A stretch of DNA of 25,387 nt from a virus (lineage: Duplodnaviria; Caudoviricetes): positions 1-25,387 of the IMG/VR virus record IMGVR_UViG_3300049164_000042; one strand, given 5' to 3'. This document shows positions 3-10,249 of the stretch, piece after piece. The notes under the pieces were generated by a model. That model was not told where the DNA came from, made no database searches, and saw nothing but the letters and a program-made list of their open reading frames with translations. Position numbers and translations under genes: made by a program. Every line of letters starts with the position of its first letter. The first letter of the stretch is position 1.

Positions 3-395
3 ATGGCCCCCGCCGCCGTCGCCATCTGGGGCGGCTGGGTCGGCCTCGGTGAGATGGCCGGCTTCGGGCCCGTCCGGCTCCTCCCCGGCATCGCTGACCA
101 GGTCGTCATCAACACCGCGATCACGTTGCCGATCGGCATGGAGGTGTACGCCGCCTATGCCCTCTACGTGTGGCTCAGCGGCAAAGCACGCGGCAAGGCC
201 CGGAGGATGGCGCGGACGTCGGCGATTGCCGCGCTCATCGTCGGCGCTGCCGGGCAGATCGCCTACCACGTGATGGCCGCCGCCGGAGTCGGTGACGCGC
301 CGTGGTGGATCACCGCCGGTGTCGCTTGCTTGCCGGTGGCAGTCCTCGGCATGGGCGCGGCACTCGCCCACATGGTCCGCGCCGACGACGAGTAG
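3..395 (+). CDS. Multi-pass membrane protein, possibly 5'-truncated by the window edge
   Basis: 130-aa ORF with about four hydrophobic segments and G/C-rich third codon positions, ending at a hairpin. Loosely resembles DUF2637-like membrane proteins of actinomycete mobile elements (unverified). Confidence 0.7.
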   Translation: MAPAAVAIWGGWVGLGEMAGFGPVRLLPGIADQVVINTAITLPIGMEVYAAYALYVWLSGKARGKARRMARTSAIAALIVGAAGQIAYHVMAAAGVGDAPWWITAGVACLPVAVLGMGAALAHMVRADDE

Positions 396-396
396 G

Positions 397-437
397 CACG
401 ACGAAGGCCCCCGCTCCACTCGGAGCGGGGGCGTTCT
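397..437. terminator. Probable bidirectional intrinsic terminator between convergent genes
   Basis: Perfect 11-bp stem GCCCCCGCTCC (407-417) / GGAGCGGGGGC (422-432) with a 4-nt loop, lying between stop codons at 395 (+) and 446 (-). Minus-strand tail is CUUCGUCGUG. Confidence 0.8.
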
Positions 438-445
438 GCTGCTTG

Positions 446-2026
446 CTAGAACGGCCAGTCGGCGTCCCTGCCGCGCTCGAGCAACGGGATCATCTTGAAT
501 CCCGCATCGGTGAGGCCGCCGAAGGTGTGGCGGGTACCTGAACCCGAGGGCGTGTGGCCGTGCTCGTAGCCCGCGAGGTTCCAGGTGTAGACCATCCGGT
601 CCTTCGGAACGGCCGCCGTGACGTCCGAGTGCCCGTGGTAGCTCGCCTGCTCGTCGGTGAGGATCACGACCCGGTCGTGGCCCGCGTAGTAGCGTCGCAC
701 CGCCCCTTCGGTGTCGGTGCCGCCGCCGATGAAGTACCCGTCGGCCTTCCACCTCTCGACCGCCCGCAGCAGCGACTCGCCGCGCTTGAGCCCGAACACC
801 TTCGACGGGTCCTGATGTCCCCAAGAGCTGGAGAACGAGACCACGTCAGCGGCTACGCACCGTCGCGCCAAGGCGAGACCGAACACCGTTGCTGCGTCCC
901 ATCGCATCAGCGAACCGTCTCGGGAGAACCCCGAGTTCATCGAACCCGACGTGTCCACCAGGACGAGCGTGCGGCCGGGAAGCTCGGGAATGTTCGCCAG
1001 GCAGGCGTCCAGCGCCCGCTCCAGCGGGTACGACCATCGCAGGGACGGCGCGGCACGGTACGCCGACAGGAACCGCATCGGGAACTGCCGCGACCGCGCA
1101 ACCTCGTCCGGGTGAGACAGCTTCGCCGCCACTGCCGCCGCGGCCTCGTCGGAGACGCCCGCCTCGTCGAAGTTGCGGAGGTTCCGCAGGAGCGCCATGT
1201 ACCCCATGGACGGGATGACGGCCTCCCACAGGCGCGCCTTGTCGACCTTGCTGCCCGCGAGGGACAGCACGTCTTCCCACGTCATGCCCGCGTCACCCAA
1301 CGGTGCGTCGAGGAGGATCGCAGGGTCCTTCGCGGCGCGAACTCGGAGGATGGCGTTCGCGCCGATCATCCGCAATGAGCCGGGGATCATGGGGTCCCGG
1401 CCATAGCGGCGGTCGAGAATGTACTTGTACAGGTCGGCCTGCCAGTCCGCCTTCGCGGAAGCGTGCACGAGGTTGAGGACATCGCCGAACCGGTACCCCT
1501 TCGAAGCGGTGTCCCACTTCAGGACAGCGCGTTCGGTGTAGAGGCGTGCAGCGGCGTCGGCGATCCCTCGCTTGACGGCCTTAGGGATCGCGCGCCCGTA
1601 CGTGGAGGTCCAGTAGGCCAGGGCTTCGCCGGGCTCGTCGGGGCGCTGAAGGACCGAGTCGACGACCTGGCGGCCACCGGGGATGCCCGCAGCGATCATG
1701 GCCTTGGCGGCTTCGAGCCCGCCGACGAGCGACGCGGAACGCATGTTCGCGCCCGCGCGGAGCCACGCGAGGAAGCGGCCAGTCCAGTCAGGATCGGCGA
1801 CAGCGACCGCGTGAACGAGCTCGGCGTACCGGTTGTCGCGGCTGTCCGCCGTCTCGTAGAACGTCTGCTCGCCGACCATGTTGGTGACCGCGAGGAGGAA
1901 CAGCTCGGACTTGGCGTCACGCGAGAATCCCGGCGCCCCTTCGAAAGTGGCGCCCGTGGCGAGACGATTCGAGGCGATGGGAGAGGACACCGCCGCGCGA
2001 GTGGTGGACCGGTTGAACTTCGACAT
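446..2026 (-). CDS. rsr: Ro60/Rsr-family TROVE-domain RNA-binding protein with C-terminal vWA domain (526 aa)
   Basis: TROVE-type motifs (ELFLLAV..FYE, RPDEPGE, MGYMALLRNLRN, SRQFPMRFLSAY) and vWA MIDAS residues (LVDTSGSM, GGGTD, ILTDEQ). ATG at 2026 follows AAGGAG; Y-RNA-like genes lie directly upstream. Confidence 0.93.
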   Translation of the reverse strand: MSKFNRSTTRAAVSSPIASNRLATGATFEGAPGFSRDAKSELFLLAVTNMVGEQTFYETADSRDNRYAELVHAVAVADPDWTGRFLAWLRAGANMRSASLVGGLEAAKAMIAAGIPGGRQVVDSVLQRPDEPGEALAYWTSTYGRAIPKAVKRGIADAAARLYTERAVLKWDTASKGYRFGDVLNLVHASAKADWQADLYKYILDRRYGRDPMIPGSLRMIGANAILRVRAAKDPAILLDAPLGDAGMTWEDVLSLAGSKVDKARLWEAVIPSMGYMALLRNLRNFDEAGVSDEAAAAVAAKLSHPDEVARSRQFPMRFLSAYRAAPSLRWSYPLERALDACLANIPELPGRTLVLVDTSGSMNSGFSRDGSLMRWDAATVFGLALARRCVAADVVSFSSSWGHQDPSKVFGLKRGESLLRAVERWKADGYFIGGGTDTEGAVRRYYAGHDRVVILTDEQASYHGHSDVTAAVPKDRMVYTWNLAGYEHGHTPSGSGTRHTFGGLTDAGFKMIPLLERGRDADWPF

Positions 2027-2060
2027 GAAAGAAGGCTCCTTCCGCACCGGGAGGAGCCTT
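2027..2060 (-). promoter_or_regulatory. Leader hairpin sequestering the rsr Shine-Dalgarno, possibly also an attenuator
   Basis: Minus strand AAGGCUCCU-CCCGGUGCGGA-AGGAGCCUU-CUUUC-AUG: a 9-bp perfect stem contains AGGAG and is followed by a pyrimidine run. Confidence 0.6.
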
Positions 2061-2062
2061 GG

Positions 2063-2213
2063 ATAGTGAAGCGCCCGAGATCAAGTCGACTGCGGAACGT
2101 AGGTGCTCTGCCAATTGAGCTACCAGACCCTAAGGACCGGACGGGATTTGAACCCGCAACCACCCGCTTAAGAGGCGAAGTAGCCGCTGTCTGCGCACCG
2201 GGCGCTTCACTAT
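2063..2213 (-). ncRNA. yrlA: YrlA-type bacterial Y RNA (circularly permuted tRNA mimic)
   Basis: 15-bp terminal inverted repeat (2063-2077 / 2199-2213) and Y-like motifs GGUGCG and UUGAUC. Inside, 5' to 3': T arm GCGGG-UUCAAAU-CCCGU (2141-2157), closed acceptor-like hairpin (2123-2140), D arm GCUC-AAUUGGCA-GAGC (2105-2120). Adjacent to the Ro60 gene. Confidence 0.88.
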
Positions 2214-2223
2214 GAAGGTCTGA

Positions 2224-2300
2224 ACCTCCCGAGATCAATGGCGTTCGCGGATATCTAAAGCCAAAGAAGTAGCCGCGAACTTCGCACCGGGAGGTGCTAT
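2224..2300 (-). ncRNA. Second, short Y-RNA-like gene without a tRNA domain (YrlB-like)
   Basis: Terminal stem ACCUCCCG/CGGGAGGU (2288-2295 / 2224-2231) and inner 8-bp stem (2273-2280 / 2243-2250). Shares CCCGGUGCG, GCGGCUACUUC and UUGAUCUCGGG exactly with the neighbouring YrlA. Confidence 0.78.
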
Positions 2301-2306
2301 AAGGCC

Positions 2307-2312
2307 ACAGTA
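2307..2312 (-). promoter_or_regulatory. Candidate -10 element (TACTGT) for the Y RNA-rsr unit
   Basis: TANNNT hexamer 6 nt upstream of the AUAG that begins the short Y RNA; YrlA also begins AUAG. No convincing -35 element. Confidence 0.35.
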
Positions 2313-2357: not shown

Positions 2358-2402
2358 ACACGACGAAAGCCCGGCCGCCGCCGTGAGGCAGCGACCGGGC
2401 TT
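2358..2402 (-). terminator. Intrinsic terminator of the late/lysis operon
   Basis: 16-bp stem AAGCCCGGUCGCUGCC/GGCGGCGGCCGGGCUU that is complete only on the minus strand (two G-U pairs), with a 4-nt loop and a UUUCGUCGUG tail, 15 nt after the putative holin stop. Confidence 0.82.
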
Positions 2403-2659: not shown

Positions 2660-2953
2660 GTGTCGGAAAACGTTGCGCTGTTGATCTGCGACCACGAAGC
2701 GCCGGGCACCCGAAGAACATGGCGCGCCCGGGAGCACGGCTACTTCGGCCGGTGGCGGGACTGCACCGTCGAGGCCGGTCAGCTCGACGACGGACGCTGG
2801 TGGGTCAGGCGGATCGCTCACCCGGTAGGCGGTGAGTTCCGGGCCGAGCTGTACGACAGCGAGCGTGCCGCGATCACGGTGGCGCGGGCGGTCATGGCCG
2901 AGATCGAACCGGCACTCGTGAAGGCCGGGTGGCGGCCGTTCCAGGAGAGTTAG
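2660..2953 (+). CDS. Hypothetical protein (97 aa) inserted against the lysis cassette
   Basis: Strong G/C third-position bias in this frame, fills the gap exactly, Trp/Arg-rich. TAAATT lies 7 nt before the GTG, suggesting a leaderless transcript. Exact start is uncertain. Confidence 0.65.
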   Translation: MSENVALLICDHEAPGTRRTWRAREHGYFGRWRDCTVEAGQLDDGRWWVRRIAHPVGGEFRAELYDSERAAITVARAVMAEIEPALVKAGWRPFQES

Positions 2954-3741
2954 TCCGGCGGTGTCTCGCCCTGGTCGGTGGGGATGCACGCGATGATGTT
3001 GACCGGGCCGCTCGGAGTGACTACCGTGAGCGGCCCCGCGGGGGCCTCCGGGGGGCAGGGCAGCCCGTGCTCATCGATGTACGCCTCGATCTCCGCGCGG
3101 ATCTCCTCCTTGGTCGGCGGCCGCCCCGGTTCGCCCTGTGCGCCGTCCTGGCCGTCGGTGCCATCGGCCCCGTCTTCGCCGTTCTCGCCAGCAGGGCCAG
3201 GCGGCCCCGGCGGCGGGGGGTTCTCGGCGAGGTACGCCGCCATCGCGGCGTACAGCTGGTCGTTGAGCAGGTCTGGATGCTCGGTCAGGACCGAAGCGAA
3301 CGCGGCCGTCAGCTGCGCGGCGCTGGGCTCGAACTCGTAAGGATGCGCCGCGAAATAGTCCGCGAAGGCCGCTTCGATCTCGGCTTCGGTTAGGGCCGGC
3401 CCAGGAGGACCAGGGGGACCCGACGGACCGGGCTGCGGCGAGTACGACGGGTCCTCGAGCAGTTCCTCAGGGGCTGGGGCGACCGGATCGCCGCCGAGGT
3501 CTTCGATTTGCGACTGCGAGTCACCGAGGGCGGCATAGAGCGCGTCGATCTGGGCGGACTGGTGGTCGTCTTGGGCGTAGGTCCAGCCGAGCAGGATCGC
3601 CGCGACGAGGATTGCCGCAATCGAGATGACGACGCGGCGGAGCGGAAGACGACGGGCGTCCCGGCCGCGTTCCTCTTCGGCGCGCTGCTCGTCGCCTTCG
3701 CCCTGAGGCACGCCGTCTACTGAAAGTGGCTCAGTGCTCAT
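2950..3741 (-). CDS. Membrane-anchored collagen-like protein in the lysis region
   Basis: One TM segment (VVISIAAILVAAILLGW), a short coiled coil, two Gly-X-Y tracts and two C-terminal Cys; ATGA overlap with the upstream gene. Confidence 0.8.
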   Translation of the reverse strand: MSTEPLSVDGVPQGEGDEQRAEEERGRDARRLPLRRVVISIAAILVAAILLGWTYAQDDHQSAQIDALYAALGDSQSQIEDLGGDPVAPAPEELLEDPSYSPQPGPSGPPGPPGPALTEAEIEAAFADYFAAHPYEFEPSAAQLTAAFASVLTEHPDLLNDQLYAAMAAYLAENPPPPGPPGPAGENGEDGADGTDGQDGAQGEPGRPPTKEEIRAEIEAYIDEHGLPCPPEAPAGPLTVVTPSGPVNIIACIPTDQGETPPD

Positions 3742-5411: not shown

Positions 5412-6445
5412 TGCCTCCTGGTGGTGTTGGGGTCGGGTGCGTGCTCTTGCGCGGCAACGCGGGCGGTGAGCTGTTCGACTTTCGCGGCGAGGTCGTCGAT
5501 CTGCTGCTGCTGGCGCTGGATCAGCGGGACGAGCGCGGCCGACACCCGGTCGTAGCGGATCGAGATCGGCAGACCCTCCGCGTCGTACTCGACGAAATCC
5601 CCGAGGCCGAGCACGTCGAGTTCTTCAGCAACGAACCCGACCTCGCGCGGTGCATCCTCGGGCGGGTCCACGAGCTCGCCCGCGTGGCACTCATCCGCGG
5701 CGTGTTGCGCGTGCGCCCATGCAGGGCACTGCCTCGGGACAGCCCCGGGAAGCCACGTGCGAGGCCGCAACTGCAGCACCACAGCAGGGTCAACATCGAG
5801 GTCGCGGATGTCGGTCTTGACCCGCTCGGTCGACGACACCCACGTGATCTGACCGGTTGTCGTGTCCATGCGGACGTTCGCCGTCCCCGAACCGGACTGC
5901 GGCCGAATGAACGTGCCGGTGACACCGCCGATCGCGGCTTGCCCGCCCAGCGACAGGATCTGCGCGTAATCCGTTCCCTCAGCGAAAATGTTGACGGTCC
6001 CGGTGCCGCGGATGTCGACAGATTTCGACCGGAAGTCGAGGTCGTCGGCGTATGCCTGGAACGAGGCGGCGGGCGTGAGACCGCCGATGATGACCTGGGA
6101 GCCGTTGGTGGCATGGTCCTGGACCCGGAACAGGTTCCGGCCGTTCTGGTCGTTGACGAGCATCCCGTAGGCGATGATCTCGGTACCGTTGCCGATGTAC
6201 CCGAAATAGGCGGCGTCCCCACCAGAGGGGTACCGGACCGAGACCCGTGAGCCACCCTGAATAGCCAGGAGACCGCCGCCGTCCAATGTGATGCCAGCGC
6301 CGTTCTCTACGATGACACCACCAGTGCCGATCGTGGTGGCCTCGGCAGTGCGGGCGGTCTGCAACTGCCGGATCGCCGCCCATATCTCGGCTATCAGCGC
6401 CGCAGTGGGTTTCTCGCTGGAGGCGTCCGAGAACAATCTGGTCAC
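5408..6445 (-). CDS. Minor tail/fibre protein with C-terminal S74-type intramolecular chaperone domain
   Basis: Gly-rich beta-type body followed by SSTERVKTDIRDL..GFVAEEL..IRYDRV..coiled coil, the autocleaving chaperone pattern. Confidence 0.82.
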   Translation of the reverse strand: MTRLFSDASSEKPTAALIAEIWAAIRQLQTARTAEATTIGTGGVIVENGAGITLDGGGLLAIQGGSRVSVRYPSGGDAAYFGYIGNGTEIIAYGMLVNDQNGRNLFRVQDHATNGSQVIIGGLTPAASFQAYADDLDFRSKSVDIRGTGTVNIFAEGTDYAQILSLGGQAAIGGVTGTFIRPQSGSGTANVRMDTTTGQITWVSSTERVKTDIRDLDVDPAVVLQLRPRTWLPGAVPRQCPAWAHAQHAADECHAGELVDPPEDAPREVGFVAEELDVLGLGDFVEYDAEGLPISIRYDRVSAALVPLIQRQQQQIDDLAAKVEQLTARVAAQEHAPDPNTTRRQ

Positions 6446-8913
6446 AGCGCCTCCAATGTCGGGTCATCGACGAGTCCAGGGACCCAGGTGCCCTTGACCG
6501 GGTCGATGAGCATCCCGGTGAGACGTCCTGACCCCACAAGGGCGTAATCGGTCGGATCCTCGATCGTCGGCTTCGGGTGGCCGGGGCCGTTGCACCGGTA
6601 GCCGACCATGTCTCCGATACGGGCGTGGATGCTCGGGCGGGGCCCTTCGTACAGGCTCGCCTCGATCTCGATCGACTGGACACCGTTGCGGCGGCGCACC
6701 AGGTCGGCGTCCGCGAACGCCTGCAGGTTGGTGTTGTCGTTGACGTTGTTGCCGGGGGAGATCACCGACTCCACGATCGGGTAGCCACCGGACAGCGCCG
6801 CCGCGTCGATCGCGGGGCTGCTCGCGGGTTGGCTGTCGCCTTGTCCTGGCCCAATCGCGGTGATGTGGTTGGCGTAGTCGTCGTCCGCCCACGACTCGTT
6901 GTGCTTGTAGGAGACGACGGAGACGTCCGTGTCCAACACCGGGGGATTGGGGGCGTCGAGGACACCGATCCTGCGCGCGATCCGCAGGATTTTCACGATC
7001 CTGGTTTGGGAGGCGTCCGCCCAGTCCAAACCCACAGTGAACTCCAGGCCCGCAGCGCACAGGTCCCGGATCGCGTTATAGATTTTCATGCGGTCGGTGG
7101 TCGTGTAGCCGATGGTGATGAGGTCGCCGGTGTCGGTGACGTCGTACTCGAAACCCAACCCTTGGCCGAGGCCGTTCAATGCTTCTGCCTGCTGCGCCAA
7201 AGCGAGTGCGACACGGGACCGGTCCGCGTTCACGAACTCCGCATCCCGCGCGAGACGTTTCAGCAGGTAGGACTCGGGTGTGTTCGCTGAGGGGACATGG
7301 AGTTTCCCGTCCGATCCCCTATGGCGGTTCGCGGGTAGCCCCATCCAGATGGGGATGTCGTTCACTACCGCGACAATGGATCCCAGGCGGCCGTCCGTGG
7401 CGGCCAGGATCGACTGGATCGGTAGGTGACCCTTGTCGGAGGCCAACGGGATCGCGACCGACGAGGACGCATACGCGGACAACTGGATCCGAGGAGAGCA
7501 CTCCACATCAGGCAGCTCGCACAGAATCTGCCCCGTGACCCGGTGCACGCCCAGCCACTGGACCTCTCGGCGTGCCGAGGCCTGCGCGTACACGGGGGGA
7601 GCGACCGGCAGCGGCGGCACCGCGCCGGGCGTCTCGACGGTCAGCGACTGGGAGCCCCACGGGCTGGACTGGTACCAGCCAGTGAGGGTGATCGTGATCT
7701 GGGTGCCGTCGTCCGCGACACCGACGGTGCCCCACTGCTCCCGGCCGCCCTGGTATCCCAGGTTGTATTGGGCGTCGTTGCCGTGGTGGGGCGTCGCGTC
7801 GATCCCCGCGGTGAGCATGACCGGGAAGTTCCCGTAGGGGTTGTGCTGAGGGGAGCACAGGCCGAGGGCGTGGATGTCAGCAGACACCTGCACCATCGAC
7901 TGCGACCACATGCGGGCCCCGCCCGAGGCGGGCACCGGTGTCGTGGTCAGGAAGTTGACGATCGCGGCGCGTTCGTACGAGAACGCGCCCCACGTGTGCT
8001 GGCCGCCGTCGTGCAGCCACGGGGTGGGCATCAACCACACCAGGGCCTCAGCGGTCGTGGTCTGGAGCAGGTTGAACATCCAGTCCAGCTGCTGCTCGCC
8101 GAGCATGGTCTTCGTCGGCGAGTCGGGATCCAATGTGAACGACCGGTTGTACCGGGTGTCGTTGAGGATGTAGAGGACCCGGCCCATCTGCCACGACTGG
8201 TACGGCGAACCCGTCGCTTCAGGAGTCGGGTAGTGCGGGATCCGCTCCCGGTAGACCTGCGCAGCGATGCCTTTGCCGGGGACCGTCCCGTCCGGGTAGC
8301 CCGGTGAAGGCGTGTACCCGTAGTCGTGGTTGTCCCACATGTACTGGAACGGGACCTCGCGGTACAGGCGGTGCTGCCGGGACTGGGCGAACACATCCGT
8401 GAACATGCGCCGGTAATTGTCGACCGACCCGCCGCCGACCACGCCGTGGTCACCCGAACCCAGGTCGTAGTAGGTCAGGTCGCCCAGGTGCGCAACCATG
8501 TCCGGGTTCGCCAGGCGGACCGTGTCGAACGTCGGCGCGTTTGAAATCCGGGAAGGCAGGAGCTCGGTACCGGACCCGGGGTAGACCGGGGACAGGCCAG
8601 CGTCGCCAATCGTCGCGACCGTGTGCGACCACGGCAACCCGACCGGCGCGTGCGTCCGGAACCGGCCGGTAGTAACGGTGTCGAGGACCCCGTCGTCCTC
8701 CACCCCGTAGAAGTATTCGGAGGAAGGAGACAGCCCCTCGGCGGTGAACCGGTGGGCGCCATCCGAGGAGACCCCATCGGGCGTGAACCACGCCGGCGTG
8801 GACAGGTCCGGCGAGTCCGAGACGGCCAGCCGCGCCGTCGACCCGGCGATGTCGGCGATAACCCTGGCGGTGGACGAGGTGACCGCGCCGACCGTCAGCG
8901 AGACAACAGCCAC
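6442..8913 (-). CDS. Minor tail protein fused to an N-terminal PhoD-like metallophosphoesterase (823 aa)
   Basis: PhoD-like motifs HLGDLTYYD, WDNHDY, NDTRYNR, TMLGEQQLDW and SADIH, then a Pro-rich linker and a siphovirus tail-type domain (NESWADDDYANHITAIG). GTG at 8913 follows GGAGG. Confidence 0.8.
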   Translation of the reverse strand: MAVVSLTVGAVTSSTARVIADIAGSTARLAVSDSPDLSTPAWFTPDGVSSDGAHRFTAEGLSPSSEYFYGVEDDGVLDTVTTGRFRTHAPVGLPWSHTVATIGDAGLSPVYPGSGTELLPSRISNAPTFDTVRLANPDMVAHLGDLTYYDLGSGDHGVVGGGSVDNYRRMFTDVFAQSRQHRLYREVPFQYMWDNHDYGYTPSPGYPDGTVPGKGIAAQVYRERIPHYPTPEATGSPYQSWQMGRVLYILNDTRYNRSFTLDPDSPTKTMLGEQQLDWMFNLLQTTTAEALVWLMPTPWLHDGGQHTWGAFSYERAAIVNFLTTTPVPASGGARMWSQSMVQVSADIHALGLCSPQHNPYGNFPVMLTAGIDATPHHGNDAQYNLGYQGGREQWGTVGVADDGTQITITLTGWYQSSPWGSQSLTVETPGAVPPLPVAPPVYAQASARREVQWLGVHRVTGQILCELPDVECSPRIQLSAYASSSVAIPLASDKGHLPIQSILAATDGRLGSIVAVVNDIPIWMGLPANRHRGSDGKLHVPSANTPESYLLKRLARDAEFVNADRSRVALALAQQAEALNGLGQGLGFEYDVTDTGDLITIGYTTTDRMKIYNAIRDLCAAGLEFTVGLDWADASQTRIVKILRIARRIGVLDAPNPPVLDTDVSVVSYKHNESWADDDYANHITAIGPGQGDSQPASSPAIDAAALSGGYPIVESVISPGNNVNDNTNLQAFADADLVRRRNGVQSIEIEASLYEGPRPSIHARIGDMVGYRCNGPGHPKPTIEDPTDYALVGSGRLTGMLIDPVKGTWVPGLVDDPTLEAL

Positions 8914-8914
8914 G

Positions 8915-10249
8915 TCACGCCTCCATGTAGACGCCCTGGACGACAATCGTCATGTTGACCGCCAGATCGCTACCGCCCATGTTGACCAGTGCGTTGGAGG
9001 TGGAGCCGGTGTCCCACCGCAGCCGGTCCCACGTGGCGCTCGTCCCCGAGGGGAACAAATAGACTTTGCCGCCTCGGATCGAGGGGGTCGTCGCGCCCTC
9101 CACTGCGAGGTCCACGACCTGGCGGACCGTCCGGTCCGGGTTCGTCGGGGAGTTCACCTGCAGCACATCAGTACCCGAACCGGCACCCGAGACGAGTAGG
9201 TACACGATCCACGCCACCGTCTTCGGGGCGATGCGGATCCACCTACCTGTACGCGTGGAGAACGTCGCCGACCCTGCACCGGTCACCGTCGGGGTGTACG
9301 TCGTCCACCCGGTGACGGCCGATCCTGCAGTCAAACCCTGCACGTAGTCGTAGTTGACCTTCGACGCAATCGGCTGCCACCCTCCGGCGTAGCGCAGGAG
9401 CGAGTCGGTGTCGGCCTGGTCGGCGTACATCCCCTCTCGCACTACCGAATCGGGTAGCTCGGCGGCGGTTCGGACGGGTAGGATCCCGCCCGCGGTAACG
9501 GTGTACGGGGCGATCACTGTGGGAGTCGCGGTCCCCGAACCCGGAGGGATCGAGAACGTCGCAATCGGCAGCGTCCCGACAGGAGCATCCGGTGCAGGGC
9601 TACCCGGCGTTCCGGGAATGATCCTGGTCCGGCCCGGGATCAAATCACCAGACGCGTCCGCGGCATTGTCCAGAACCTCGGCGATCAGCAGATCGATACG
9701 GGTCAGTGAAGCGTGAGCGGTCGCCAAGGTGTGCTGCGATGACGGGATCGCCACCACATACGGGCCTCGAGAGGAGGACCCCGACGTCTGCACGACGCCG
9801 TTGATGTCCTGCACGGTCACGGTCAGACCCGACACTGACAGCTCCGCGCTGCCAGAGTTGTGGAACAACCCCCACCTGGCGTTAAAACGGCCCGTAGCGA
9901 ACGCGGCCGTACGGCCCTTGTACAGCAGGCCGCCCATGGCCCGCCGCAGCGACTGCGCGTCGTAGACCGCTTCCGCGGCATCCACCGAGCATCCCCCGGC
10001 CGAACCGAACACCATGACCGGCCCACCAGGTGAAGGCCTGACTTGGAACGTGTCTGTCGTGGCATTCGCGACGAAATACGGGGCGCCAGGAACCAGCACC
10101 CCAACCGCGCCGCCCGTCGGAGCAGACGTCACCACCTGCTGCCCGTCCACCAGTCCATGCCCAGCGATCGTCAACGTGGACGGCGCGGCAATCGTCGCTG
10201 TGCCGACAGCGGCACCGCTAGCGGCAGTAGTCGCCCAGAGAGCAGGCAC
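8915..10249 (-). CDS. Minor tail protein (444 aa)
   Basis: Lies after Dit; contains the actinophage minor-tail-like motif TAHASLTRIDLLIAEV.D and a C-terminal WTTYTPT fibre-tip-like region. Confidence 0.75.
   Translation of the reverse strand: MPALWATTAASGAAVGTATIAAPSTLTIAGHGLVDGQQVVTSAPTGGAVGVLVPGAPYFVANATTDTFQVRPSPGGPVMVFGSAGGCSVDAAEAVYDAQSLRRAMGGLLYKGRTAAFATGRFNARWGLFHNSGSAELSVSGLTVTVQDINGVVQTSGSSSRGPYVVAIPSSQHTLATAHASLTRIDLLIAEVLDNAADASGDLIPGRTRIIPGTPGSPAPDAPVGTLPIATFSIPPGSGTATPTVIAPYTVTAGGILPVRTAAELPDSVVREGMYADQADTDSLLRYAGGWQPIASKVNYDYVQGLTAGSAVTGWTTYTPTVTGAGSATFSTRTGRWIRIAPKTVAWIVYLLVSGAGSGTDVLQVNSPTNPDRTVRQVVDLAVEGATTPSIRGGKVYLFPSGTSATWDRLRWDTGSTSNALVNMGGSDLAVNMTIVVQGVYMEA

Follow-up and report, generated by a model that had tools for sequence, protein, structure and literature searches.

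A conserved candidate riboregulator in the rsr leaders of actinobacteria and their phages

In protein-sensing leaders, such as the rRNA-mimicking operators of ribosomal proteins, the thrS operator and the attenuators of PyrR, TRAP and BglG-LicT, a protein reads a copy of its target placed in its own leader. We report here a candidate leader of a new protein-sensing, autoregulatory form upstream of the Ro60-type gene rsr in a 25,387-nucleotide (nt) stretch of viral DNA (IMG/VR record IMGVR_UViG_3300049164_000042, hereafter the window); it is conserved among rsr loci and larger than the feature first reported there. It shares with the systems above a choice between exclusive helices, made by four strands that we number in order of transcription (1:2 plus 3:4 against 2:3). 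Unlike in those systems, the aptamer would be no mimic but a Y RNA gene itself, 2:3 encloses another functional RNA, YrlA, and the regulator would be a Ro60 protein.

YrlA was defined by Chen et al. 2014 (PMC4201824), in whose list it precedes rsr by 49-81 nt in several Streptomyces species and in Amycolatopsis, a spacing that resembles the distances in the leaders studied here. The arrangement in the window resembles the YrlA/YrlB pair of that work: rsr is preceded, on its own strand, by a pair of Y-like RNAs, one of which has T and D arms like those of a tRNA. In contrast, the available part of that paper treats these RNAs as trans-acting tethers and tRNA mimics and describes no cis switch; the order in M. 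smegmatis is YrlA-YrlB-rsr rather than short Y-YrlA-rsr, and the Ro-binding motif is GNCGAAN0-1G rather than GGUGCG(A/C)AG with a UUGAUCUC 3' strand. The rsr-yrlBA-rtcBA locus of S. Typhimurium (PMC7790460) is comparable in that expression of Rsr with Y RNAs is regulated, but there the Y RNAs are encoded 3' of rsr, and control as described in the accessible text is transcriptional, through the CARF activator RtcR, which senses tRNA fragments. Ro60 of the Thermus phage phiLo likewise binds two upstream Y-like RNAs, Yrl1 and Yrl2 (PMC12135203), whereas no leader regulation is described in the accessible part of that report. As far as their available text goes, bioRxiv 10.1101/312249 and the two latter papers treat structure, binding and RtcR control only. 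Our literature search found neither autoregulation of Rsr/Ro60 nor an rsr-leader switch, with the reservation that reviews and supplements could still bear on novelty.

The original prediction for the window was that the Shine-Dalgarno (SD) sequence of rsr is buried in a 9-base-pair (bp) stem, that the 5' arm and loop of this hairpin hold a third copy of the Y RNA 5' motif, and that a Y RNA 3' strand could pair with this copy and so open the hairpin. Its coordinates all hold in the sequence, the fold and a repeat search of the window. The SD AAGGAG (2041-2036) lies in a hairpin with arms 2060-2052 and 2040-2032 (9 bp), CCTCCCGGTGCG occurs exactly twice in the 25,387 nt (2054-2043 and, in the short Y RNA, 2294-2283), and YrlA shares 9 nt with the third copy, at 2202-2194. 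The stem is as described; the loop needs correcting, as a further 3 bp can form there. Of the two partners envisaged, the short Y RNA 3' strand stands, pairing at -15.7 kcal/mol with the third copy versus -17.8 kcal/mol with its own 5' strand. The YrlA 3' strand is ruled out on energy (-8.4 kcal/mol, versus -17.7 with its own strand).

We collected 269 sequences (window included, locus L208 left out) from viral contigs (38), named genomes (best 80 of 439), metagenomes (best 80 of 162) and sampled actinobacterial genomes, 246 of them with a recognisable rsr start; 172 of these 246 leaders parse as ending in two adjacent Y units. Unless stated otherwise, the tests used 66 representatives at 75% Rsr identity, with a stricter set of 34 at 65%, and the tree was built from 156 at 95%. 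Strand 2 is the 3' strand of the penultimate Y unit (the sensor), which, taking the most frequent classes, starts with GGGAG in 52/66 leaders, versus 2/66 for the terminal unit. In 56/66, its partner, strand 3, sits opposite it across YrlA, no more than 3 nt off the mirror position. Because of this mirror placement, 2:3 extends the YrlA closing stem, which it lengthens to about 28 bp in the window fold. Over a 6-nt core, the duplexes of a leader's own strands 2 and 3 are more stable than shuffled ones (-10.2 versus -9.2 kcal/mol, z -7.5, 59 better and 7 worse), and the difference persists at 65% Rsr identity (z -6.3, n = 34) and among the 56 G-rich sensors alone (z -4.9 to -6.5). When positions 1-5 set the register, pairing is seen at position 6 in 52/66 leaders (null 40.6) and at position 7 in 40 (null 26.6), the latter through varied pairs (C-G 15, A-U 12, G-U 7, G-C 3, U-G 3). 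Strand 1 pairs position 7 in only 13/66; thus strand 3 tracks strand 2 and is not a duplicate of strand 1. Among phylogenetically independent pairs on the tree, the 7-nt duplex was better in 17, worse in 4 and tied in 5 (p = 0.004). The four strands, their geometry and their covariation can be read in the leader sequences themselves, and the 2:3 helix is very probably under selection. Within the third copy, the CCUCCC half corresponds to strand 3 and is general across leaders. Covariation across homologues thus supports the central idea of the original prediction, namely that a Y RNA 3' strand pairs with the 5' arm of the hairpin and that this alternative helix frees the SD.

Fold prediction makes 2:3 incompatible with both the short Y helix 1:2 and the SD hairpin 3:4; these leaders therefore possess mutually exclusive helices supported by covariation, as an attenuator-type switch should. 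Leaders differ widely in the balance between the two folds, which in the median is near even (0.7 kcal/mol). In 57/66 leaders the nascent sensor adopts 1:2, and a transcript ending just past strand 3 adopts 2:3 in 48/66 and 1:2 in 7, in a calculation that by its design contains no strand 4. With 1:2 locked, opening the SD-to-AUG region costs a median of 12.3 instead of 8.7 kcal/mol (median rise 3.5, above 1.4 in 52/66) and, in the window, 14.4 instead of 10.6. Blocking strand 2 was costlier than blocking control 6-mers in 56 versus 4 of 64 leaders. In silico, SD access thus depends on the upstream helix, the other property of an attenuator-type switch; exclusivity, folding order and the effect on the SD are all predictions from folding. 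A fold-back of the sensor 5' end (0:1'), in which an invariant GCACC pairs with GGUGC and hides the Ro motif, is found in 57/66 sensors versus 42/99 other Y units (Fisher test, p = 8e-9), and it is present in the window's 2:3 fold.

The hairpin had been viewed as a joint SD and terminator element. The SD part holds, since the SD is paired in 63/66 leaders, but the terminator part is weak: at least 5 U follow the SD in only 13/66, and in the window a consensus scan for intrinsic terminators (a GC stem with a U tract after it) did not call the hairpin. The leader output appears to be mainly translational, and the hairpin mainly an SD sequester. A separate observation concerns AT-rich Streptomyces-phage leaders (L023, L029, L195 and phage BRock, L297, 480-900; L numbers denote loci of the collection), which keep the two-Y layout and carry a hairpin with a U tract about 30 nt before the SD. 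This suggests a transcription-attenuation variant. Folding support is weak in BRock (P(2:3) 0.25), and no opening effect at the SD is seen in the AT-rich phage leaders.

Sequence comparison and folding together lead us to propose, with moderate confidence, that the rsr leader is a negative-feedback switch by which Rsr, when free, would stop the translation of its own mRNA. The short Y RNA, transcribed first, is predicted to fold into the Ro-binding helix 1:2, which spare Rsr would bind and clamp during transcription of the 150-nt YrlA. With 1:2 clamped, strand 3 is predicted to pair with strand 4, hiding the SD (rsr OFF). If 1:2 is not clamped, branch migration starting at the YrlA stem would transfer strand 2 to strand 3, strand 1 would fold back on its own Ro motif, and the SD would be free (rsr ON). 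The supply of Rsr would thereby follow that of its ligands, Y RNA among them. The YrlA-like RNA would be a spacer between strands 2 and 3, and possibly also a time delay. Repression is most likely the sign of the control, and not the opening of the SD by Rsr occupancy as originally suggested. Sensing is supported by 12 of the 246 leaders, in which the short Y RNA is reduced to little beyond the Ro helix. Natural variants, read by eye, include six leaders that have lost YrlA and kept 2:3 (L042, L050, L061, L101, L131, L181) and three that have lost both sensor and strand 3 (L067, L097, L105).

Several observations weigh against such a switch. Position 8 shows no covariation (18 paired versus 20.8 under the null), and the independent pairs are weak at 6 nt (7 better, 2 worse, 4 ties) and at 8 nt (18, 10 and 10), both with p = 0.09. 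Without any Rsr, the full-length leader of the window is still 3.8 kcal/mol more stable in the OFF fold at equilibrium; fixing 2:3 instead of 1:2 lifts the mean exposure of the SD only from 0.13 to 0.31 (44 up, 9 down), a modest predicted effect; and at a few loci 3:4 is very stable (24-30 kcal/mol to open). For these three reasons the ON state must be kinetic, and it would rely on co-transcriptional ribosome loading. The window's motif, GGUGCG(A/C)AG, is not exactly the published GNCGAAN0-1G, so we can only infer, from its resemblance to the motif of Chen et al., that Rsr recognises this variant; clamping of 1:2 and repression are likewise presumed. Two leaders (L041, L215) keep 2:3 without a Ro motif, and the architecture is absent from L223, L224, L016 and L020, the first two having the order YrlA-short Y-rsr, as in M. 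smegmatis, and no switch. Finally, 74 of the 246 leaders were not parsed as two units: in 27 the last parsed unit is far from the start (many of these being parser misses), 15 have no units and 32 have one.

Conservation of the third copy itself is split: the CCUCCC half is general, and the GGUGCG half is found exactly in the hairpin loop of only 7/246 leaders (the window, L119, L241, L242, L244, L247, L256). GGUGCG is thus rejected as a universal element, and the switch circuit must be independent of it. These seven leaders fall at five places on the Rsr tree, most pairs having Rsr only 54-66% identical; near-copies occur in sister loci, and the next relatives, L015 and L183, have none. C[CT]GGTGCG within 45 nt of the start occurs in 12/246 rsr leaders versus 47/7117 coding-region control windows (0.66%), a recurrence that excludes a chance origin; the two-mismatch count in the window alone (11 versus 9.0 expected) is not significant. 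Pattern scans added four loci with the copy (L273, L274, L283, L290). In 301 genomes of the order Streptosporangiales, 8/20 exact matches to the hairpin pattern lie directly before rsr; 12/20 genomic and 3/4 viral matches have no rsr in the flank retrieved, and the reversed-pattern control gave 6 matches. One match (L275) lies inside the end of an unrelated open reading frame (ORF). The GGUGCG copy is real, retained in a minority of leaders, and dispensable.

Five more leaders carry the motif just before the SD (L005, L161, L162, L180 and L198). In the first four, the last 60 nt before rsr form a circularly permuted Ro-site hairpin, with the 3' strand first and GGUGCGA second; this is a separate operator-type architecture of one clade. 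In the window's ON fold, the third copy would recreate a Ro-type helix in circularly permuted form, its end lying 1 nt from the SD. The geometry would match that of L161 and L180, two leaders that have no competing hairpin. The likeliest function of the copy is that of a second, repressive Rsr operator, although against a relic or a mere toehold we hold the chances to be about even. Tentatively, one might extend the proposed negative-feedback switch to a kinetic four-strand riboregulator, with a Y RNA gene as sensor and a nested tRNA-mimic YrlA as timer, with which the Ro60/Rsr proteins of Actinobacteria and their phages would gauge how much of themselves is free, the phage ON fold adding a second, permuted Ro site at the SD so that Rsr would repress both folds. 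By titrating Rsr, stress RNAs would then raise its production with no transcription factor involved.

All of the covariation could also be accounted for without any sensing of Rsr. The default 2:3 helix would then keep rsr translatable and serve as a processing stem around YrlA, and Y RNA excision would let 3:4 close the leftover mRNA, giving a fixed ratio of Y RNA to Rsr. The lengthened YrlA stem of the window, a possible RNase E motif in the linkers, the retention of 2:3 without a Ro motif in L041 and L215, and the processing of M. smegmatis Y RNAs from a single precursor, as reported in the available part of PMC4201824, are all in keeping with such a processing timer. It leaves unexplained the minimal Ro helix of the 12 leaders with a reduced short Y RNA, the sensor-specific hairpin that masks the motif, and the Ro motif placed directly before the SD in other lineages, and we consider it unlikely. 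Alternatively, Rsr might block the ribosome directly by binding the GGUGCG copy next to the SD, whether as part of the hairpin or of the permuted helix, the four-strand pairing being secondary. The excess of the motif near rsr starts over control windows, its exact retention among such divergent Rsr proteins and its end 1 nt from the SD agree with this; but most switch-type leaders, those of the nearest relatives L015 and L183 among them, do without the motif, its hairpin form lacks a Y RNA 3' strand, and the 2:3 covariation is general, which makes an operator acting alone improbable.

The sign of control could be the opposite, as originally proposed, if 2:3 were stabilised, and rsr turned on, by Rsr binding to the permuted helix that the third copy rebuilds or by a cut in the short Y RNA. 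The strong pairing of the short Y 3' strand with the third copy (-15.7 kcal/mol) would allow it, and loss of strand 1 favours 2:3 in some loci. We nevertheless hold positive control to be very improbable: Rsr bound to a copy that abuts the SD would probably obstruct the 30S subunit, the copy is missing from most leaders, and with strand 1 alone blocked the window's SD stayed closed at equilibrium. There is just as little probability that the third copy is a decayed Y RNA or the hairpin a plain terminator, with the complementarity arising incidentally from two sequences that are both anti-SD-like. In sister loci L250, L251, L252 and L112, near-copies of the motif do look decayed, and shuffled partners also pair fairly well (-9.2 versus -10.2 kcal/mol). 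The cognate advantage, the compensations at positions 6 and 7 that strand 1 does not share, and the mirror geometry all speak against such an origin, as do the weak U tracts (13/66) against a terminator. Decay is thus largely refuted for the 2:3 helix and possible for the GGUGCG part alone.

If the negative-feedback switch is true, it would give Y RNAs, described so far as trans-acting tethers, gates and tRNA mimics, a cis-regulatory role that is new for the class, and it would account for the second, short Y RNA found in a fixed position in bacteria. A phage cassette could balance a potentially disruptive RNA-decay factor without host regulators. The leader would also be an in vivo reporter of free Rsr, making directly testable what occupies Rsr, and under which stress.

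Table 1. Features of the Y RNA-rsr cassette and its flanks, in window coordinates.
Feature	Position	Strand	Basis
rsr (Ro60 orthologue, TROVE and vWA, 526 amino acids)	446..2026, ATG 2026-2024	-	ORF and domain search
Strand 4: SD AAGGAG and hairpin 3' arm	2032..2041	-	sequence, fold
Third copy CCUCCCGGUGCG, GGUGCG part ending 1 nt before the SD	2043..2054	-	sequence
Strand 3: 5' arm of the SD hairpin (anti-SD), partner of strand 2	2048..2060	-	fold, covariation
YrlA-like tRNA-mimic Y RNA, 15-bp closing stem	2063..2213	-	Rfam match; fold z -3.55
Linker extending 2:3 (AG/CU, CCUU/AAGG), possible RNase E site (RR-CNU)	2214..2224	-	fold
Strand 2 (CGGGAGG), pairing with strand 1 (OFF) or strand 3 (ON)	2225..2231	-	covariation, folds
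Short Y RNA (YrlB-like), proposed Rsr sensor	2225..2297	-	fold
Strand 1 (CCUCCC) and putative Rsr-binding motif GGUGCG	2283..2294	-	sequence
Alternative 5' mini-hairpin GCACC-UCCC-GGUGC (0:1'), masking the Ro motif in the ON fold	2284..2297	-	fold
TACTGT, predicted -10 element of the Y RNA-rsr transcript; the sensor follows after about 10 nt	2307..2312	-	sequence
GC-rich inverted repeat following the holin gene	2366..2400	-	sequence read directly; holin Pfam match under cut-off
Strong hairpin between rsr and the converging gene	395..445	.	-33.3 kcal/mol, z -5.4

Both Y units of the window fold with paired ends, in a long 5'/3' stem with an interrupted helix (Table 1), whereas the third copy has no 3' strand of its own and forms such a stem only with that of the short Y RNA. 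Their 5' motifs read GGUGCGAAG and GGUGCGCAG; neither matches the published GNCGAAN0-1G, the motif being a variant 1 base longer. The YrlA-like RNA scores 38.3 bits with the YrlA family (RF02553), under the gathering threshold of 69 (E 9.7e-7; model positions 24-84 only), but has tRNA-like T, acceptor-like and D stem-loops on the same strand within 4 kilobases of rsr (alignment 2164-2102). No known Rfam cis-regulatory family reached its gathering score in the window, and 12 homologous loci gave only two tRNAs. The acceptor-like stem of YrlA (2120-2140, minus strand) has about 7-8 bp, a length that the available part of PMC4201824 links to RNase P cleavage of M. smegmatis YrlA; cleavage there would nick the leader within the 2:3 enclosure. 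The linkers between Y units (related loci and window 2214-2224) carry a ACAACUUCA-like motif in 47/100 cases, which fits the mycobacterial RNase E preference RR-CNU given in the accessible text of PMC10641625 and, judged by its sequence, is likely a processing signal. Three loci (L245, L246, L233) have GAAGUGC in place of GGUGCG in all Y units and keep the sensor 5' fold-back, possibly an Rsr specificity variant. In Gordonia phage Neville (L295, 360-905), the Y-like RNA array is overlapped by several tiny annotated coding sequences and by the annotated TTG start of the Ro gene, for which the ATG at 901, with its own SD, is more likely.

The window's Rsr belongs to the Ro60/Rsr proteins by its TROVE and vWA domains (PF05731, E 3.9e-20; PF13519 under its cut-off), and it matches phage Ro-like proteins and the phiLo Ro60 structure 9KOP (E 1.9e-24). 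A protein domain search of the window identifies the contig as an actinobacterial siphovirus, with capsid, portal, tape measure and lysis genes, its capsid being 45-47% identical to those of Streptomyces and Gordonia phages. The rsr locus is a self-contained minus-strand cassette 3' of the holin gene, running from a terminator-like repeat through TACTGT, the short Y RNA, the YrlA-like RNA and the hairpin to rsr. TANNNT precedes the Y array in 53/66 leaders versus 65/2178 control windows; a strict sigma-70 scan found no full promoter in the window. From its sequence, the repeat at 2366-2400, absent from the consensus terminator scan output, is likely a terminator insulating the cassette from the late operon, and the hairpin at 395-445 is likely a bidirectional terminator. 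Converging on rsr is an ORF of 130 amino acids (3-395, plus strand), membrane-protein-like and without a Pfam match. An 834-amino-acid gene of the tail region (6442-8946, minus strand) has a PhoD-like phosphatase domain (E 2e-9) and might encode a virion-associated phosphatase. Between lysin and holin (2950-3741, minus strand) lies a gene for a collagen-like repeat protein with a predicted membrane segment, and L119 has a similar gene, placed before the holin.

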